A stretch of 64,000 nt of DNA from an uncultured Aliarcobacter sp. (GCA_964384195.1 CAYLKG010000002.1:2117-66116), one strand, 5' to 3'; positions 44,544 to 53,385 are shown, counted from the stretch's first letter. Made by a program: numbers and translations. Notes: generated by a model from the letters alone, not told the origin.

Positions 44544-45878
44544 TTAAGATTCTTTTGAATCTTCTTTAGATTGTTCTATTTTTGTACATAATATTTTTTT
44601 AATTCTATTATTATTTATCTCTAAAATCTCATATGTACAGTTTTCATCTACTATTATTTCACCAACAATAGGAATTCTGCCAATTAAGCTTGTAATTCTT
44701 CCACCAATTGTTACAGAAAGTTCATCTTCATCAAACTTTATATCTAAAATTTCTTCAACTTTTTCAATATTTACCATACCATCAAGTTCATAGATATTTT
44801 CATCTATTTTTTTAATAGTCTCTTGTTTTGGATCATGCTCATCCGTAGTTTCTCCAATTATCTCTTCAAGAATATCATCCATAGTTATTAACCCTGAAGT
44901 CCCACCGTATTCATCAACAACTAAAGCTAAATGAATTCTACTTTTGTTCATTCTTGTTAGAATAGAAGAAATTGAAGTATTTTCAGGAACCATAATAATC
45001 GGTCTTACAAGTTTAGAAAAATCACTAATATTATTTTCTAAGGCACTATTTAATAAATCTCTTGTGTGAATCATTCCTGTTACATTATCTTTTCCACCAT
45101 GACAATAAGGATATCTTGTATGCCTTGAATTTAAAACTCTTTTGATATTTTCTTCAAAACTTTTTTCAGAATTTATACAAATCATATCTTTTCTTGGAGT
45201 CATAATCTCTTTTGCAACAGTTTCAGAAAAGTCAACAGCATTTTTTATAATTTCACTCTCTACTGAATCAATATAACCACCTTTGAAACTCTCATTTACA
45301 ATAATTCTAAGCTCTTCTTCTGAGTGTGCTAAATCCTGCTCACTTGCTGGTTTAATTCCAAGTCTTCTAACGAAAAATGCAGCAACAATATCAAAAAATC
45401 TAATCAGTGGATAAAATACTAACCAAAATAGATATAAAGGTCTTGCTATATATAAAACCATAACTTCAGCTTTTGCAATAGCAACTGATTTAGGCACTAT
45501 TTCACCAAAAACAACATGTAAAAATGTAACGATAGCAAAAGCTATAATGAAACTTACAGTATGTAATAAAACGGAATCACCAGCAAAAAATGATGAGAAG
45601 TTAGATTCAATAATTTTTGCTAACGCAGGTTCACCAATCCAACCTAAAGCAAGAGAAGAAAAAGTAATTCCAAGTTGTGTAGCACTTAAGTAAGTATCAA
45701 GAGAGTTAGACATTTTCAATGCCAATGAAGCTCCACCTTTTTTTTGTTTAACAAACTCTTCTAGTTTACTTTTTCTAACTTTAACAATTGCAAATTCAGA
45801 GAGAACGAAAAAACCATTTAGAAGAACCAGCACTGCTGCTGCAACAAGCATAAGAACGGACTGTATATCGGGATCCAA
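44544..45878 (-). CDS. Hemolysin-family CNNM/CBS/CorC protein
   Basis: NGFFVLSEF, QLGIT, GEIVPK, CBS pair (HTRYP, VVDEYGGTSG), CorC domain. Confidence 0.9.
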   Translation of the reverse strand: MDPDIQSVLMLVAAAVLVLLNGFFVLSEFAIVKVRKSKLEEFVKQKKGGASLALKMSNSLDTYLSATQLGITFSSLALGWIGEPALAKIIESNFSSFFAGDSVLLHTVSFIIAFAIVTFLHVVFGEIVPKSVAIAKAEVMVLYIARPLYLFWLVFYPLIRFFDIVAAFFVRRLGIKPASEQDLAHSEEELRIIVNESFKGGYIDSVESEIIKNAVDFSETVAKEIMTPRKDMICINSEKSFEENIKRVLNSRHTRYPYCHGGKDNVTGMIHTRDLLNSALENNISDFSKLVRPIIMVPENTSISSILTRMNKSRIHLALVVDEYGGTSGLITMDDILEEIIGETTDEHDPKQETIKKIDENIYELDGMVNIEKVEEILDIKFDEDELSVTIGGRITSLIGRIPIVGEIIVDENCTYEILEINNNRIKKILCTKIEQSKEDSKES

Positions 45879-45999
45879 AAATTTTCCTTTTTTTTATAAT
45901 TTTATTTTTAGGTGTAAATATAAGCTATATAGACTTAATTTCTGCTTTTTTATTCAATTTAATTTTAATTTATGTTTAAATTTTGTATTTTAATAATAT

Positions 46000-46527
46000 T
46001 TATTCTTTTATTATAGTTATTACTAATTCTCCAACAACAAAACCAAATTTCTTCATTTTTGAGTGGTTAATAATAACTTTTTCATCTTGTAAATGAAGCC
46101 AATCTTGAACACTTAAATCTATAGTAGAATTTTTATATGGAACCCTCATAATATAATCTATCATAACAGTATTTCCATTTGCTATCATAGGACTTTCACC
46201 AATAATATCATTTGCAGTTGCTATAAACTTCTTATTTTCTGTTGGCTTTAAAGTCCAAACTCTTTTCATCTCTTCACCATCATCATAAACAAAATACTCA
46301 TCAAGTGTTCCAATGCCATTTTTATCCCAAGAGCCAACCATAGTCCCTTTAAAAGTTCTTGTGATTTTCCCGCTTCTATCTTTTACGATACCATAAGCTC
46401 TTAATTTTCCATTGAAATATTCTTGGGGAATAAACTCTGGTTTTGTGTTGTTAAAATCTTCTATTTTCATACTTGAACATCCTGTTAGTAGTGTGATGGT
46501 TAAAAAAACAATTAATAAATTTTTCAT
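46000..46527 (-). CDS. DUF3833 family lipoprotein
   Basis: Lipobox LTGC; EYFNG..RAYG, LDEYFVYDDGE, KKFGF. Confidence 0.85.
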   Translation of the reverse strand: MKNLLIVFLTITLLTGCSSMKIEDFNNTKPEFIPQEYFNGKLRAYGIVKDRSGKITRTFKGTMVGSWDKNGIGTLDEYFVYDDGEEMKRVWTLKPTENKKFIATANDIIGESPMIANGNTVMIDYIMRVPYKNSTIDLSVQDWLHLQDEKVIINHSKMKKFGFVVGELVITIIKE

Positions 46528-47750
46528 GCAATTAATCCTTTATTTAAAGCTATATTTTGGTCTTGTGTAAATACAAATTGGTGAAGGTTTATATTTCTTG
46601 TTAAAAATCCTGCTTCACAATAGTTTAGATACATTTTCCACATTCTTATAAAATATTCATCAAATCCCAAATTTCTAACAACTTCTAACTTTTTTTCAAA
46701 ATTATCATGCCAAATATTGAGAGTTTTTGCATAATCTTCTGTGAACTCTTCAAGGTGATGTAGGTTTAATCTTGTGTGTTTTGTGGTAACTTCAAGGATT
46801 TTTGAAATACTTGGAAGATGACCTCCTGGGAAAATATATTTTTGTATAAAATCCGTTCCTTTTGCATAATCTTTGTATCTTTGATCAGGCATCGTGATTA
46901 CTTGAAGTACCAAAACGCCACTTGGTTTTAGTAATTCTTGGCATTTTTTGAAAAAGATATGAAAATACTCTTTCCCTACCGCTTCAAACATTTCAACAGC
47001 AATTATTACATCAAATGTTCCGTTCAAATCCCTATAATCTTTGAGAAAAATATCGATTTTATCTTCAACATTATGCTCTTTAAATCTATCTTCACAAAGC
47101 TTTTTTTGCTCCACACTCAAAGTTACAGTTGTAACTTCACATTTTTTGTCATTTGCCAAATGAAGAGCCATAGCTCCCCAACCTGAACCAATTTCAAGAA
47201 CTTTTGAACTCTCTTTGATATTTAGTTTTGATGATAATTTTTCTAGTTTATTTTTTTGGGCTTCATATAAATCTTGATTTTTATGGGAAAAAACAGCACT
47301 TGAATACATCATAGTTTCATCAAGCATTAGTTTGTAAAACTCATTTGATAAATCATAGTGGGCTGAGATATTTTTTCTTGAGTTTGTTTTTGAGTTTTTT
47401 CGCAAAATATGTTTGATTTTATTAAAAATAGGCATTAGGTTTATGAGTTTGTTTTTTTCATTTTCACTTGTAGTTCCCAAATATTTTGAATTCAAAAGTG
47501 CTAACTCTACTAATTTTGTAAGATTTGAAGTCTCAAAATCTTTGTCTATGTAACTCTCCGCAAAACCAATATCTCCATAAAGCATAATTCTTGTAAAAAA
47601 TCTATTGTTATATATCTCTAAAGTGATTTTTTCTTCTAGTTTTTGTTCTCCATAAAGTTTGATATTTCCATCTTTATAGATTACTTCCAAAGTTCCTATT
47701 TTTATTTTTGAAAAGAAGTTATCTCCAAATTTGTTCCATAATTTTTGCAT
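46524..47750 (-). CDS. cfa: Cfa-like SAM-dependent fatty-acid methyltransferase (UfaM-like)
   Basis: NISAHYDLSNEFY, MMYSSA, LEIGSGWG, EMFEAVG, YIFPGG, MWKMYL. Confidence 0.88.
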   Translation of the reverse strand: MQKLWNKFGDNFFSKIKIGTLEVIYKDGNIKLYGEQKLEEKITLEIYNNRFFTRIMLYGDIGFAESYIDKDFETSNLTKLVELALLNSKYLGTTSENEKNKLINLMPIFNKIKHILRKNSKTNSRKNISAHYDLSNEFYKLMLDETMMYSSAVFSHKNQDLYEAQKNKLEKLSSKLNIKESSKVLEIGSGWGAMALHLANDKKCEVTTVTLSVEQKKLCEDRFKEHNVEDKIDIFLKDYRDLNGTFDVIIAVEMFEAVGKEYFHIFFKKCQELLKPSGVLVLQVITMPDQRYKDYAKGTDFIQKYIFPGGHLPSISKILEVTTKHTRLNLHHLEEFTEDYAKTLNIWHDNFEKKLEVVRNLGFDEYFIRMWKMYLNYCEAGFLTRNINLHQFVFTQDQNIALNKGLIA

Positions 47751-47751
47751 T

Positions 47752-48504
47752 TTAAAACCTCCTTATTTTGTCGTTTTCTCTTGGAAAATGGATTTTTAAA
47801 CCCTTTAAATAAAGCCTAATTGCCTGAAAATATGTTCTACTTACCACTAAAAAAGTGCTAAACATATATCGAAAAAATATTTTTAGTATATTTTTAAAAT
47901 TGTATTTTTGGGCTTTTGAGTTAAAAATCGCTGTTAATTTGTGTTGTTTATCTTCGTATAAATCGATTTTTATAAATAATTTATTTTCATCATACTTTAG
48001 CTCAAACTCATAAACTCCCTCACACTCAAAAAAAGGAGATACATACATATCTTTTTTTACAAATCCAAAATAAGAGTTGCCTTTTTTTTCCAATGACACA
48101 GGATAAACAACACGACCGTTGTTGTAGTTGTGAACTTCAGCTAAAATATGAGTTGGTTGCTCTTTTTCATCAAACAACACTAAAACACTAATTGGATTAA
48201 AAACAAAGTTCAAAACCCTTGGAAGTGTTAAAAATCTCATTTTATTTGTAACTTCTAAATCAAACTTTTTTAGAAGTTCTTTTATGTTTTTAAAAAAATC
48301 AGTGCTTACTCCAAAGTGGTCAAAACTTTGTAAACTCATAAAATTTAGTTTATTTATTGAAAAGATTTTATTTTCTAAACTTTTTAAATCAAAAATATCC
48401 ATATCAAGTAAATAAAAGTTATATTTAAAGTCATGCTTTTTAGGAAGAAATCTTTTATGATAAATAGTTCCTTCAAAAATATTATGATTTGAAATATTTG
48501 TCAT
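47752..48504 (-). CDS. DUF1365 family protein (UfaO-like)
   Basis: HKRFLPKKHDFKY, LPRVLNFVFNPIS, AEVHN, MYVSPF; ATG at 48504. Confidence 0.85.
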   Translation of the reverse strand: MTNISNHNIFEGTIYHKRFLPKKHDFKYNFYLLDMDIFDLKSLENKIFSINKLNFMSLQSFDHFGVSTDFFKNIKELLKKFDLEVTNKMRFLTLPRVLNFVFNPISVLVLFDEKEQPTHILAEVHNYNNGRVVYPVSLEKKGNSYFGFVKKDMYVSPFFECEGVYEFELKYDENKLFIKIDLYEDKQHKLTAIFNSKAQKYNFKNILKIFFRYMFSTFLVVSRTYFQAIRLYLKGLKIHFPRENDKIRRF

Positions 48505-48505
48505 C

Positions 48506-49744
48506 TTAAAACTCACATCCAAGTTTAGAAGCTACTTTTGTTGCACTTAAAAGCCCATCTTCATGAAAACCATATCTCCAATAAGCCCCTGTAAAATATG
48601 TATTGTTTTGCCCACAAATCTCATCTTTTCTACTTTGCATTTGTATTGCTTCTGAATTAAATTGTGGATGTTCATAAGAGATTTTTTCAATCACATTTTT
48701 TATATTTTGTGTTTCATTTAAAGATACAAAATAATCTTTTTTTGTTTTTAGATTTTGTAATATATTTATCCAATAACTAAGGGTTACAGCTTGATTTTTT
48801 GTATTCGTACTTGTGTAATTCCAAGCTGCATACATCTTTTTATTTGGGTATAAAATATCATTGTCATTGTGTAAAACAGCACTATTTTCTTTGTATTTAA
48901 AAGCACTTAAAATCTCTAATTCTTTCGGTGTTGGATTTTCTAAAATCTCTAATGCTTCAGGTGCATGCATGGCAAGAACTACCTTATCGTAAAAAGATTT
49001 TGTTCCATTTTTATGGATTAAATAAACGCCATTTTCCTCTCTTCTTACTTTTATAACATTTGAGTTTAAAAAGATTTTTCCAGAAATTTTTTGTTTAATT
49101 TTATTTACATAATTTATACTTCCATTTGAAACAGTTAACCATTGATGATGAGTAGATACTCCTAAAAGTCCATGATTTTTAAAAAAAGTCAAAAAACTTC
49201 TTGCTGGAAAAAGATTCATTTCATCACTTGGAGTTGACCAAATAGAAGCTCCCATTGGGAGTAAATATCGCTCTTTAAAGGCATTTGAATAATCTTTGAT
49301 ATATTCACCTAAAGTTTTGTTCAAATCGGAGCTATTTGCTTCTAAATCTTCATTTGCTTTTTTGTTAAAATCCAAAATATCTTTTATCATTCTATAGTGA
49401 GTAAAAGAGAAAAAATTTCTTTTTTGAGCAAACATTCCTTTTAAAGATGAGCCGTTATATGCCCTATTTCTATCTCTATCCCAAAAAGCAAAACTCATAT
49501 CTGAGTTTTCTATTTTTACATCCAATTCTTTAAAAAGCTTTGTTAAAAGTGGATACGTAGGATGATTAAAAACCAAAAATCCAGTATCAACACCAAAAGT
49601 TTTATTTTCATCTTGAATTATTGTAGTTCTGGCATGTCCACCTAATCTATTTTCTTTTTCATACACATCAACTTCATATTTTTTACTTAAAATATAAGCA
49701 CTTCCAAGCCCACTAATTCCGGCCCCTAAAACTGCTATTTTCAT
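48506..49744 (-). CDS. FAD-dependent oxidoreductase (UfaD-like, amine oxidase fold)
   Basis: GAGISG, RLGGHA, VDTGFLVFN, MGASIWS, AAWNY, YGFHEDG. Confidence 0.88.
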   Translation of the reverse strand: MKIAVLGAGISGLGSAYILSKKYEVDVYEKENRLGGHARTTIIQDENKTFGVDTGFLVFNHPTYPLLTKLFKELDVKIENSDMSFAFWDRDRNRAYNGSSLKGMFAQKRNFFSFTHYRMIKDILDFNKKANEDLEANSSDLNKTLGEYIKDYSNAFKERYLLPMGASIWSTPSDEMNLFPARSFLTFFKNHGLLGVSTHHQWLTVSNGSINYVNKIKQKISGKIFLNSNVIKVRREENGVYLIHKNGTKSFYDKVVLAMHAPEALEILENPTPKELEILSAFKYKENSAVLHNDNDILYPNKKMYAAWNYTSTNTKNQAVTLSYWINILQNLKTKKDYFVSLNETQNIKNVIEKISYEHPQFNSEAIQMQSRKDEICGQNNTYFTGAYWRYGFHEDGLLSATKVASKLGCEF

Positions 49745-50223
49745 TTAAATCTTCCTTTTGGGTCAAGTTTTGTAAATACTAATTTTGAAATATCCATTTT
49801 CTTTTCTAAACTTTTTAAGATATTTTCTAATTCAACTTTATCTATATTTGGAGTCCTACTCATAATCCAAAGATTTGAATAATCATCATTTGCTACAACT
49901 GCTGTTTGGTAGTTATTTAAATATTCAATTTTATATGAAGTTGTAAAAACAAAAAAATATCTCATAAAAATTTCATTATTTTCTATCTTTGCAAAACCGT
50001 TGTATTCAATCAATTTTCCATTTATTTCATTTTCAAAACATCTATTAAAAACATCATAGGTATTATCTTCTAAAAGCTTATATTCAACGCTTGAAGCAAC
50101 ACATGAAGTTTGAAAGCTATTTTCAACTCTTGCTATTTCATACCAAAGTCCTGAAAACTTTTTTACATCTACAGAACTATTTGCAAAAGATATAGACAAA
50201 TAAAAAAATATTAAAAGTAACAT
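49741..50223 (-). CDS. Lipocalin family protein (Blc-like)
   Basis: FSGLWYEIAR (SCR1), LWIMSRTP (SCR3); ATG at 50223 gives a signal peptide. Confidence 0.85.
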   Translation of the reverse strand: MLLLIFFYLSISFANSSVDVKKFSGLWYEIARVENSFQTSCVASSVEYKLLEDNTYDVFNRCFENEINGKLIEYNGFAKIENNEIFMRYFFVFTTSYKIEYLNNYQTAVVANDDYSNLWIMSRTPNIDKVELENILKSLEKKMDISKLVFTKLDPKGRFK

Positions 50224-50289
50224 AAATTTCAAAAATACTCCTGCAATAAAGTACAAAAATTTATTATAAAAAAAGAAAATTTTGTATGC

Positions 50290-51549
50290 TTATTTTGTCA
50301 TTTCATATTTAAGAAGTGAAATAATTGAGAATATTTTTAAAATTATCGGCAAAATCGAGTATAAAAAGATAATTACAAAAATTGAAGTTTGATTTATATT
50401 TTGGCTTTCAAAATTTGCAACTTCTAAACTTATAAAAGATATTGCAACCGCCAAAGCTAAAGATAGTTTTGTAATCATTGCCCAAAATCCAAATAAAACT
50501 CCAGTTAAATCCTCTTTTTCTTTTGTCATATTTGCAACTTCAGCTTGAATAGATGAAGGAAGAGCCATATCAGCACCTAAACAAGAACCAGTCATTATAC
50601 AAATTATAGAAAAATATATAAAATCTCCCTCTTTTAAAAATGGGACAAATACAAACGCGCTAATAGCAACTATAATTGATAAAATCCAAGTCGCTTTTTT
50701 TGTTAGCTTATTTGATACCTTAATCCAAAAAGGAAAAGCAACAATTGCACTTAAAAAATAAATGATTAAAAAAAGACCTGTTTTATCTTCTAAAACTAAA
50801 ACATATTTTACAAAAAACAAAAACAAAGTAGCAGGAAGAGCATTTGCAAGATTATTTAATAAAAAGGCAAAAAATAGTTTTTTGTGATGCGGAAAATCTA
50901 TAAAAAAATTTTTCAAAGATTTAAAAAAATTATTATGTAAACTTTTACTATTCTTTGGTTCTAAATGTCTCAGATTTTTATAAAAAACTAATAAAATCAG
51001 AGGAAAAATAAACAATATTGTGTAAAGTAAAAGCTCTAAGCTTTTTTTGGAGTCATTAGAAACTAAAAAAATATAAGGTATAAATAAAGATGTTAAAACT
51101 CCAATAATTATAAAAATCTCTCTAGAAAATGCTAGCCGTATATTATCTGTTTGATTAGAGCCTAAAATAGAGTTTAAACTTAAATATGGAATTAAAACAA
51201 AACTATAAGAAATATAAGTAATAATTGAAAATAAAAACAACCAATAAGAGTTGTAATAAATAGGTTTTATTAAAAAAAATAGTCCAAAAAGTAAAAAAAA
51301 TGAAGATATAAAAATAATATTAAATTTTGTACTGTAAATATCACAAAATCTACCAATAAATGGATCTAAAACCATATCTGCCAATCTTGCAAACAATAAA
51401 ATAAATCCAACTACTCCCACACTTAAACCTATATGTTCTACATAAAAAGTAGGTAAATAGATATACAAAGGAAATCCTAAAAAAGCAATTGGTATTCCTA
51501 GGATGCCATAAAGAAATACCATTTTGCTTTTTAGGGGTTTATAATTCAA
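50290..51549 (-). CDS. MFS transporter (GPH/MFS_2-like)
   Basis: LPLYIY-like FPLYIYLPTFY, DPFIGRFCD, GADMALP, FGFWAMITKL. Confidence 0.85.
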   Translation of the reverse strand: MNYKPLKSKMVFLYGILGIPIAFLGFPLYIYLPTFYVEHIGLSVGVVGFILLFARLADMVLDPFIGRFCDIYSTKFNIIFISSFFLLFGLFFLIKPIYYNSYWLFLFSIITYISYSFVLIPYLSLNSILGSNQTDNIRLAFSREIFIIIGVLTSLFIPYIFLVSNDSKKSLELLLYTILFIFPLILLVFYKNLRHLEPKNSKSLHNNFFKSLKNFFIDFPHHKKLFFAFLLNNLANALPATLFLFFVKYVLVLEDKTGLFLIIYFLSAIVAFPFWIKVSNKLTKKATWILSIIVAISAFVFVPFLKEGDFIYFSIICIMTGSCLGADMALPSSIQAEVANMTKEKEDLTGVLFGFWAMITKLSLALAVAISFISLEVANFESQNINQTSIFVIIFLYSILPIILKIFSIISLLKYEMTK

Positions 51550-51585
51550 AATCTAATATCGCTTATTTATAAATTTTTATTTTAA

Positions 51586-52344
51586 TCATTTTAAAAACTT
51601 TTTTGTTATTGAAAAACTTAAACTGTACGGTATGAAACTAAGAATTCTTAAAAATTTAGATAACACAAAGGGAAATGAAATTTCAAATTTATAAGATTTG
51701 TTTAATTCATCAAATATCTTTCTAGCTGCAAAATCTACTTCCATTAATTGAGGCATTTCAAAATCATTTTTAGCAGTAAGTCTTGTTTTTACAAAACCAT
51801 GATTTATAATTTGTAAATAGATATTTTTTCTTTGCAATTCAGGCTGAAGTGATTGCGCAAGATTTACTAAAGCTGCTTTTGATGCACTATAAGCTCCACC
51901 ATAAGGAAGACCAAAATAACTTGCTAAACTAGTATTTAAAACTATATTTGATTTATGTTCTTGTTTTTCTAAATAAGTAATCAAAGGTTTTAAAACTCTT
52001 AAAACACCTAAATAATTTATATTTATCATTGATTCAAAGTTTGAAATATCCCACTGTTCATAAGACATTGATTCATAAATACCTGCATTATAAAAACAGA
52101 TGTCTAACCCATTAAAAATTTTAAAAGCTTTATAAACACTTTTTTGTATATTTTCATTGTCTAAAACATCAATATTTATAAGTTCAAGATTAGTTGAGTA
52201 TTTTGATTTTAACTCTAATAGTTTAGGTAAATTTTCAATATCTCTAGCACTTGCTACGACTTGAAAATTATTGTCTAGCCATAATTTAACTAATTCTAAA
52301 CCAATTCCACTACTAGCACCAATAATCCAAACTCTTTTTACCAT
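51586..52344 (-). CDS. Short-chain dehydrogenase/reductase
   Basis: GASSGIG, NAG, YSASK, HGFVKTRLT; ATG at 52344. Confidence 0.9.
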   Translation of the reverse strand: MVKRVWIIGASSGIGLELVKLWLDNNFQVVASARDIENLPKLLELKSKYSTNLELINIDVLDNENIQKSVYKAFKIFNGLDICFYNAGIYESMSYEQWDISNFESMININYLGVLRVLKPLITYLEKQEHKSNIVLNTSLASYFGLPYGGAYSASKAALVNLAQSLQPELQRKNIYLQIINHGFVKTRLTAKNDFEMPQLMEVDFAARKIFDELNKSYKFEISFPFVLSKFLRILSFIPYSLSFSITKKFLK

Positions 52345-52359
52345 GATAAACAACCCTTG

Positions 52360-52393
52360 TTATTTTAAGCTAGTGATTACTAACTTAAAATAA
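52360..52393. promoter_or_regulatory. 34-bp operator-like inverted repeat between -10 and RBS of the SDR-first operon
   Basis: TTATTTTAAGCTAGT-gatt-ACTAACTTAAAATAA (14 of 15 pairs); TATAAT on minus strand at 52393-52398. Confidence 0.55.
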
Positions 52394-52448
52394 TTATATG
52401 GGAATAAAAAGTTTTTTTGTATTTGTTATATGTTAGTTTGTAAAAAAA

Positions 52449-53279
52449 TTATAATATTTCGTGTAGAGTATTAGCTTTTTTCATCCACTCTTCTAACTCT
52501 TCATATTTTTCTTCTTCTACCATTTTTCTAGCAGTTTGAAGTTGGCTTTCAAACAGATCAATAGAAGCTAGAAGATTTTCTCTATTTTGTTTAAAAATAT
52601 CACTCCACATTCTAGGGCTTGATTTTGCAATTCTACTCATATCTTTAAATCCACCAGCTGCAAGAGCAATAATTGCTTTTGGATCTTCATGACCCATTAC
52701 AGTATTTGCTAGAGAAAAAGAGATAATATGAGGCAAGTGAGAGATGTAACAAGCATGAATATCATGTTGTACACTATCCATTACAACTATTCGCATACCT
52801 ATTTCTTGGAAAATTCTAAAAGCTTTGTTTACATGAATATTATCGTTTGCTTCTAAATCACATAAAACAACTGTTTTACCTTCATATAAATTATCAATTG
52901 CAGCTTTTGGACCTGATTTTTCAGTTCCCGTCATTGGATGTGCTGCTATGAAATTTTTTCTTATTTTTGGTGGTATATTTTTTACTATATGCTCTTTTGT
53001 TGAACCCATATCAATAATAGTAGTGTTTTCATTTATATCCAAAAAGTTTGGAAACATAGAGATAATTGCATCAACAGGAATGGATAAAATAATAACATCA
53101 CTTACTTTTTTCAAAGTTTCTAGATCAACTACTTCATCGACTAAATTCAAATCTAATATATCTTTTTTATTCTTCTCACTATTTGTAAAACCATATACTT
53201 TTTGAGCAATTCCATATCTTTTTACAGCCTTAGCTAAAGATCCTCCCATAAGTCCTAAACCTATAATTCCTATATTCAA
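52449..53279 (-). CDS. tyrA: Prephenate dehydrogenase
   Basis: GLGLMGGS, DMGSTK, HPMTGTE, HD..ISHLPH, FKDMSRIAKS; TTG at 53279. Confidence 0.93.
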   Translation of the reverse strand: MNIGIIGLGLMGGSLAKAVKRYGIAQKVYGFTNSEKNKKDILDLNLVDEVVDLETLKKVSDVIILSIPVDAIISMFPNFLDINENTTIIDMGSTKEHIVKNIPPKIRKNFIAAHPMTGTEKSGPKAAIDNLYEGKTVVLCDLEANDNIHVNKAFRIFQEIGMRIVVMDSVQHDIHACYISHLPHIISFSLANTVMGHEDPKAIIALAAGGFKDMSRIAKSSPRMWSDIFKQNRENLLASIDLFESQLQTARKMVEEEKYEELEEWMKKANTLHEIL

Positions 53280-53385
53280 AACTAAACCTTTTATAAATAA
53301 ATTGGGCAAAATTATATCTTACTTTAGATTTATATAAACTATTTTTAGATATATTATTGCTTTATTATCCAAATTAAGGACACCT

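Follow-up and report, generated by a model that had tools for sequence, protein, structure and literature searches.

Furan fatty acids reside in membranes and scavenge singlet oxygen and radicals. Three enzymes act in turn in their bacterial synthesis: UfaM makes 11Me-12t-18:1 on phospholipids, UfaD desaturates this product, giving the 10t,12t-diene, and UfaO, with O2, forms 9M5-FuFA (Lemke et al. 2020, PMC7380195). Rhodopseudomonas palustris has the three genes side by side (RPA2571-2570-2569), and there they are necessary and sufficient; in Rhodobacter sphaeroides, ufaM (RSP2144) is located elsewhere, and RSP1089, RSP1088 and RSP1087 are dispensable (PMC7380195). In Halomonas sp. YLGW01, the in-cluster ufaM (YLGW01_00254) yields 11-methyloctadec-12-enoate when expressed in Escherichia coli, and a separate cfa yields cyclopropane acids (PMC12089945). 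Here we describe a seven-gene cluster at 46000-52344 of a 64,000-nt stretch of DNA from an uncultured Aliarcobacter sp. (GCA_964384195.1, CAYLKG010000002.1:2117-66116; hereafter the window), which a sequence-only reading had likened to this system, and which probably represents the ufaD-ufaO-ufaM pathway to furan fatty acids in an Arcobacteraceae form, accompanied by accessory genes as in Proteobacteria. To our knowledge, proof of the bacterial furan pathway is limited to two alphaproteobacteria, with its first step also shown in one Halomonas.

Open reading frame (ORF) calling and Pfam searches identified seven co-oriented, partly overlapping genes at this location, with every domain that the sequence-only reading had named: a short-chain dehydrogenase/reductase (SDR), an MFS_2 transporter, a lipocalin, a flavin adenine dinucleotide (FAD)-dependent enzyme, a DUF1365 protein, a CMAS methyltransferase and a DUF3833 lipoprotein (Table 1). 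All seven frames were open, and their junctions comprised overlaps of 4, 17 and 4 nt and gaps of 1, 33 and 36 nt, with the 17-nt overlap lying between the FAD and DUF1365 genes. For comparison, we recovered the R. sphaeroides locus using primer sequences from the supplement of PMC7380195, from a metagenome contig and then whole from a Logan assembly, and the published primers agreed with the gene ends of the recovered locus. There, chrR-rpoE is divergent from RSP1091-RSP1090-RSP1089-RSP1088-RSP1087, which encode an Amino_oxidase protein of 430 amino acids (aa), a DUF1365 protein (249 aa), an MFS_2 protein (401 aa), a DUF3833 protein (186 aa) and an adh_short protein (245 aa), respectively. A 3.0-Mb contig filed under metagenomes contains an exact R. 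sphaeroides 2.4.1 primer site along with RSP1091-1088 (PVMJ01000050.1:1216066-1223335); presumably, this contig is chromosome 1 of Cereibacter sphaeroides in near-complete form.

The FAD enzyme was 36% identical to UfaD (RSP1091) over 412/412 aa (E 1e-98), and the DUF1365 protein was 28% identical to UfaO (RSP1090) over 235 aa (E 5e-27). Identities for the remaining pairs were 26% between the MFS transporter and RSP1089 (390 aa, E 1e-27), 29% between the DUF3833 protein and RSP1088 (E 8e-24), and 32% between the SDR and RSP1087 (E 4e-46). All five R. sphaeroides proteins found their best, and usually their sole, match in the Aliarcobacter genome inside the cluster: UfaD scored 288 bits against the FAD gene vs 40 bits for the runner-up, RSP1087 scored 143 bits against the cluster SDR vs 67 for the runner-up, and RSP1089 and RSP1088 each had a single match, in the cluster. 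The FAD enzyme carries a GAGISG motif in an N-terminal FAD/NAD Rossmann region, and its full-length homology, reciprocal best match and adjacency to DUF1365 place it with UfaD. The DUF1365 gene is single-copy in the genome, and the PF07103 domain covers the whole protein at a score far above the cut-off of 25 bits (Table 1), in keeping with UfaO. These matches uphold the proposed orthology to UfaD and UfaO; the stated presence of MFS, DUF3833 and SDR genes beside them in R. sphaeroides also proved correct, RSP1089, RSP1088 and RSP1087 lying next to rpoE-chrR, as did the stated roles of UfaM, UfaD and UfaO in making a furan fatty acid (9M5-FuFA, PMC7380195). Because all five R. sphaeroides proteins match best inside the cluster, its gene content is, judged by homology, the RSP1091-1087 set together with a lipocalin and a methylase that, like that of R. 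palustris, is encoded in the cluster.

The CMAS gene has no full-length counterpart elsewhere in the genome, where the two other CMAS matches are weak and partial. Its top NCBIfam matches are Cfa models, public annotations name a cyclopropane-fatty-acyl-phospholipid synthase, and the protein is 34% identical to E. coli Cfa, all of which would suit an ordinary cyclopropane synthase, in a cluster that modifies lipids under envelope stress in general and has no connection to furan fatty acids. However, it scored below both Cfa equivalog cut-offs (272 vs 400 for NF008686, and 293 vs 600 for NF053839), and its distribution is tied to DUF1365. An in-cluster CMAS of 407-447 aa adjoined DUF1365 in 58/58 DUF1365-positive Arcobacteraceae genomes, and any CMAS was present in only 3/93 DUF1365-negative ones. 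Two of these three were Cfa-like proteins of 380-390 aa, and the other was a deletion relic in which the start of the FAD gene is fused to the end of the CMAS gene; a third 380-390-aa copy was found in a genome that also bears the cluster. Deletion relic apart, the in-cluster type thus never occurred without DUF1365 in Arcobacteraceae. The relic (L055:3720-4226, in the DUF1365-negative genome G002) belongs to a 311-aa ORF with a UfaD-like N-terminus and the C-terminal half of CMAS, and the stand-alone copies lie at L052 (G005), L053 (G120) and L054 (G037 contig 2).

In a maximum-likelihood tree, the stand-alone Arcobacteraceae CMAS (n = 3) grouped with E. coli Cfa (100/100), and all in-cluster proteins, including named Azoarcus, Ensifer, Acinetobacter, Legionella, Pseudoalteromonas and Streptomyces proteins, were separated from these by a long 100/100 branch. 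The base proposed to close the cyclopropane ring is bicarbonate, and a changed bicarbonate site would therefore fit an alkene product. In E. coli Cfa, the bicarbonate ligands are Glu239, His266 and Tyr317 (PMC11387697). The window CMAS retains two of these three side chains (Glu256 and Tyr340) and has Gln283 at the position of His266, as well as Ser151 at that of Cys139. Every in-cluster CMAS that we aligned had Gln at 266 and M(F/I)EAVG in place of MFEHVG, with Ser or Ala at 139 except in Legionella, where Cys is kept; the stand-alone Arcobacteraceae proteins retained both Cys139 and His266, and are probably true cyclopropane synthases. Given also that the Halomonas in-cluster homologue makes a methyl-alkene and not a cyclopropane (PMC12089945), we consider a cyclopropane synthase very unlikely here. 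Rather, its standing as the sole full-length CMAS, its co-occurrence with DUF1365, its clade, the Gln for His266, and its synteny with R. palustris and Halomonas, in which a CMAS-family S-adenosylmethionine (SAM) methyltransferase is likewise encoded with ufaD and ufaO, are consistent with a UfaM-type enzyme.

Across the Arcobacteraceae, DUF1365 was present in 58-59/151 genomes and in 10/22 genera, including 9 of at least 22 genomes of the window's own genus; among 301 genomes sampled across Campylobacterota it was found in nine, seven of them Arcobacteraceae. The seven-gene order was retained in 17/20 loci from ~9 genera, with varying flanking genes, and the lipocalin was present in 17/20 related clusters. 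The nearest named CMAS proteins, from A. suis, A. aquimarinus and A. cloacae, were 90-92% identical to that of the window, with Arcobacter relatives at 84-96% among the matches listed, and these identities place the host in Arcobacter sensu lato. In other genera, an eighth gene encoding a SnoaL/NTF2-like protein lies between the SDR and MFS genes, and the comparison indicates that the window's genus has lost it; the same family accompanies the cluster in Azoarcus, Azospirillum and Acinetobacter. One such protein, of 143 aa, is encoded at L040:11938-12369, and SDR-MFS gaps of ~440 bp are present in L041, L043-L048, L050 and L051. Versions of the cluster are common in Proteobacteria, and proteobacterial and actinobacterial versions adjoin sigmaE-ChrR, MerR or photolyase genes. 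Literature searches turned up nothing usable on fatty acid profiles, 11-methyl acids or photolyase in Arcobacter, and no paper that connects the genus to furan fatty acids or to DUF1365; as far as the searchable literature goes, this is the first report of the cluster for Arcobacter or Campylobacterota.

This patchy spread, the changing flanks and the one relative with a deletion relic are what might be expected of a cluster that is a non-functional relic, or a newly acquired passenger that does nothing for its host. We find such a reading hardly credible, as the seven frames are open, the G+C content of the cluster (24-29%) is the same as that of the flanking DNA, gene order and promoters are conserved across genera, and RNA-derived contigs cover the cluster at 99-100% identity. 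These contigs came from wastewater metatranscriptome assemblies that contained 74-79% of the sampled words, and they indicate that the cluster is transcribed in situ. Contig depth was highest on the SDR gene, 0-20 over the MFS gene, and 50-380 from the lipocalin gene through DUF3833, a pattern that appears to fit two promoters, one (P1) before the SDR gene and one (P2) before the lipocalin gene.

Candidates for both promoters were evident in the DNA. The SDR-upstream regions compared, from 21 genomes, show a conserved 23-bp motif, AACTAACA-N9-TAC(A/T)AA, followed 12-17 nt on by a TATAAT-like -10 element; at least 11/13 motif positions matched in 15/21 Arcobacteraceae regions, vs 0.7% of random 200-nt windows. 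P1 carries a perfect copy, and P2, a weaker one scoring 16.7 bits on the weight matrix described below, has counterparts (at least 10/13) at the homologous place ahead of the lipocalin gene in 18/18 loci. Between the P1 -10 element and the ribosome-binding site (RBS) lies a 34-nt inverted repeat that folds at -13.1 kcal/mol (z = -4.2), and whose core, AAGTTAGT..ACTAGCTT, recurs within the genus and in one further genus. Mismatches in the arms of relatives' copies all form G.U pairs, on the sense strand only; no second copy of the repeat was found in the genome, where it is unique, and a search of Rfam with it gave no family match. Since pairing is kept via sense-strand G.U and the genome has no second copy, this repeat is more probably a hairpin at the 5' end of the mRNA than an operator bound by a protein.

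The sequence-only reading had noted that no ECF/ChrR, LitR or photolyase gene is adjacent, and profile searches of the window detected no regulator or photolyase gene beside the cluster. The reading had also reasoned that regulation must differ from that in R. sphaeroides. This, too, held: tblastn searches of the genome with R. sphaeroides and Aminobacter RpoE and ChrR proteins gave no match, a search with the Azoarcus MerR gave no match at E 0.01 (MerR and B12-binding domains were not searched for by profile), and rpoD was the only Sigma70_r2 gene, leaving no ChrR, RpoE-type sigma factor or LitR-like MerR detected. We then scanned the 2.1-Mb genome with a weight matrix built solely from the loci of other genomes. 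The top match was P1 (34.2 bits), followed by two sites on another contig, C90, one of 32.6 bits before an operon of a DPRP-type photolyase, a radical-SAM protein (TIGR03916) and TIGR03915, and one of 28.7 bits at the divergent promoter before hemH, a Blc-like lipoprotein gene and TIGR03643; the best score after these three was 16.8 bits. The two operons diverge within C90:347-5661, with hemH-Blc-like lipoprotein-TIGR03643 on the minus strand and photolyase-TIGR03916-TIGR03915 on the plus strand, and the 145-bp intergenic region holds two AACTAACA-N9-TAC motif copies, one per direction. Related genomes, one of them without the ufa cluster, likewise carry the motif at their photolyase and hemH promoters, and five relatives have the photolyase gene at a distance of 1-5 kb from the cluster.

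As for what the motif represents, three known promoter types fitted poorly. Against an extracytoplasmic function (ECF)-type -35/-10 element, AAC and TAC are here ~14 nt apart, and the genome has no ECF sigma factor; the CarH/LitR operator, with 11-bp repeats of nAnnTnnACAn, is a misfit in register and period; and a MerR-type promoter would have a spacer of 19-20 bp, where spacers here are 12-17 bp. The photolyase gene shares the promoter motif and adjoins the cluster in relatives, which strengthens a photo-oxidative reading. From this we infer that the cluster is probably part of a light/ultraviolet (UV) or photo-oxidative regulon run by RpoD and another DNA-binding regulator, and not by sigmaE-ChrR or LitR. 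Somewhat more tentatively, an undescribed Arcobacteraceae light/UV or photo-oxidative regulon may comprise the SDR-MFS, lipocalin-ufaD-ufaO-ufaM-DUF3833, photolyase and hemH-blc-TIGR03643 units, with a regulator of neither the ECF sigma, ChrR nor LitR type. One candidate for that regulator is the small TIGR03643 protein, itself encoded in the putative regulon, whose sequence looks helix-turn-helix-like.

Two further observations concern the surroundings of the cluster and photolyase genes in relatives. A 351-aa EAL protein with a Cys-rich N-terminal domain of ~115 aa (MxCKCKD...) that matches no assigned family is encoded directly beside DUF3833, on the photolyase side, in four relatives and one gene further in a fifth (L039:5537-6592, L038:10703-11758, L036:5310-6365, L049:5303-6367 and L041:4975-6030), and only a C-terminal remnant of this gene remains in the window's own genome, at the end of a contig (C90:171-272); the protein could be a sensor tied to the same stress response. 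In L045:10952-14393 (genome G006), DUF3833 is followed by a CbiX-like gene and then by a further motif copy preceding genes for a renalase-like FAD oxidoreductase, an ABC1/UbiB kinase and TIGR03643, which suggests that the regulon is larger in other genera.

Several points weigh against the furan fatty acid reading and its regulatory extension. The reverse best-match test covered the R. sphaeroides locus only, not the whole R. sphaeroides genome, and the UfaM assignment draws on clade, signature, co-occurrence and synteny, not on the sequences of the proven UfaM proteins (RSP2144, RPA2569 and YLGW01_00254). A shared motif is no proof of co-regulation, and the regulon is deduced from conserved cis-elements; the depth of contigs reflects expression poorly, and the RNA libraries may contain carried-over DNA. 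The assignment of a product to cluster-bearing Arcobacter rests on genes, not lipid profiles, and the DUF1365 protein, besides its low identity to UfaO, is only 26-29% identical to proteobacterial DUF1365 proteins, which leaves an altered product possible. A Ufa-type pathway might accordingly end in a methyl-branched monoene or diene, a shorter furan acid from 16:1, or another oxygenated lipid: both 16:1 and 18:1 chains are abundant in Arcobacter membranes, and the DUF1365 protein, at 46-89% identity within the family, is one of the less conserved members of the cluster. Just two UfaO proteins have been characterised (PMC7380195). We nevertheless regard a different end product as unlikely, since the UfaD-UfaO-UfaM triad is intact and is kept together wherever any part of it occurs, and the same triad yields furan acid in R. 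sphaeroides and R. palustris (PMC7380195).

On the furan fatty acid reading, we infer the chemistry by analogy with the characterised enzymes. The CMAS enzyme would use SAM to methylate cis-vaccenoyl, and possibly 16:1, chains of existing phospholipids, giving the methyl-branched trans-alkene 11Me-12t-18:1 with no cyclopropane ring closure. The FAD enzyme, with O2, would convert this methyl-alkene into a conjugated diene (11Me-10t,12t-18:2), into which the DUF1365 protein would insert an O2-derived oxygen, closing the furan ring to give 9M5-FuFA. Within the membrane, this product would then be expected to scavenge singlet oxygen and radicals. Of the conserved accessory proteins, the SDR, MFS_2 transporter, secreted lipocalin and DUF3833 protein might conceivably handle, move or detoxify modified or oxidised lipids across the envelope.

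The features of the locus are collected in Table 1. For the SDR gene, the ATG at 52344 is preferable to the TTG at 52353 of a longer ORF call. The most likely start of the lipocalin gene is the TTG at 50232, which is preceded by an AGGAG RBS and opens a signal peptide, MKFMLLLIFFYLSISFA/NSS; since this peptide is without Cys, the protein would be secreted and not lipidated. The DUF3833 protein begins MKNLLIVFLTITLLTGC, within which a lipobox (LTGC) bears out its earlier label of lipoprotein. The genes on either side are on the same strand as the cluster, and bamA is also nearby. No intrinsic terminator was found in the interval from the DUF3833 stop codon to the CNNM/CorC gene (45879-45999), and read-through into that gene is possible. 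CorC was downstream of the cluster in 0/20 relatives' loci examined.

Table 1. Genes, predicted promoter elements and flanking genes of the cluster, in window coordinates.
Feature	Position	Strand	Evidence and remarks
tyrA (flanking gene)	52449-53309	minus	
Promoter P1 motif, AACTAACA-N9-TACAAA	52416-52438	minus	13/13 match; TATAAT 17 nt on, at 52393-52398
34-nt inverted repeat	52360-52393	minus	between -10 and RBS; probable 5'-leader RNA hairpin, alternatively operator
SDR oxidoreductase	51586-52344	minus	Pfam adh_short E 2.5e-36; RSP1087 counterpart
MFS_2 (GPH/Mfsd2a-type) transporter	50290-51549	minus	Pfam MFS_2 176 bits, E 8.8e-52; RSP1089 counterpart
Internal promoter P2 motif, AAATGACA-N9-TACAAA	50281-50303	minus	overlaps MFS stop codon; -10 TATAAT at 50263-50268
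Putative secreted lipocalin (Lipocalin_2/Blc-like, PF08212)	ORF 49741-50256, likely gene 49741-50232	minus	Pfam E 1.6e-26
UfaD-like FAD-dependent fatty-acyl desaturase	48506-49744	minus	Pfam Amino_oxidase and NAD_binding_8
UfaO-like DUF1365 protein (PF07103)	47752-48522	minus	Pfam 186 bits, E 1e-54
Putative UfaM-type CMAS methyltransferase (predicted cis-vaccenate 11-methyltransferase)	46524-47750	minus	Pfam CMAS 283 bits, E 3.5e-84
DUF3833 lipoprotein (PF12915)	46000-46527	minus	Pfam 202 bits, E 6.9e-60; RSP1088 counterpart
CNNM/CorC gene (flanking gene)	44544-45878	minus	

A cluster that is intact, transcribed and conserved in the family would extend the furan pathway to a phylum in which it is otherwise rare (9/301 sampled genomes), and it is a candidate contributor to the aerotolerance and the persistence in the environment by which Arcobacter differs from Campylobacter. 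If the proposed regulon is real, furan fatty acids would be part of the survival of aerotolerant, non-phototrophic Campylobacterota in lit, oxygenated water. The sharply defined motif ties the cluster to a photolyase and a ferrochelatase in a genome without an ECF sigma factor and gives a handle for finding the regulator, and the two-promoter layout sets the SDR-MFS pair apart from the biosynthetic genes. For annotation, the Gln in place of the bicarbonate-ligand His, together with M(F/I)EAVG for MFEHVG, may separate UfaM-type methylases from cyclopropane synthases.

Among known systems, R. palustris CGA009 has the same core order, ufaD-ufaO-ufaM (RPA2571-RPA2570-RPA2569, then RPA2568), with the methylase in the cluster; the likeness is judged from gene order, and host phylum and regulation differ. 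R. palustris also has FufM, which leads to a dimethyl furan acid (PMC7380195), whereas the Arcobacter genome is without a second full-length CMAS, so at most a monomethyl product would be expected. With R. sphaeroides RSP1091-1087, the cluster shares all five operon families as well as a link to photolyase and photo-oxidative stress genes. There, however, ufaM is remote and rpoE-chrR adjoins the operon, whereas in Arcobacter the methylase is in the cluster, the genome has no ChrR or ECF sigma factor, the gene order is rearranged with SDR-MFS first, and a lipocalin is added.

The gammaproteobacterium Halomonas sp. YLGW01 resembles the Arcobacter cluster in layout, in that an in-cluster CMAS stands beside ufaD and ufaO, and its split between in-cluster and stand-alone CMAS is mirrored in the Arcobacteraceae. 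On plasmid pAZKH of Azoarcus sp. KH32C, a comparison from annotation only, MerR adjoins FAD-DUF1365-CFA-CHI-MFS-DUF3833-SDR-NTF2, which has 6/7 families in common with the Arcobacter cluster but a different gene order, a chalcone-isomerase-like gene in place of the lipocalin, and a DUF1365 protein of 29% identity. E. coli Cfa, finally, belongs to the same CMAS fold family, has the N-terminal lipid-binding region, acts on phospholipid acyl chains, and shares Glu239 and Tyr317 with the window CMAS, which differs from it in the His266 to Gln and Cys139 to Ser changes, in altered MFEHVG and LLHTIG motifs, and in its placement in a separate clade.

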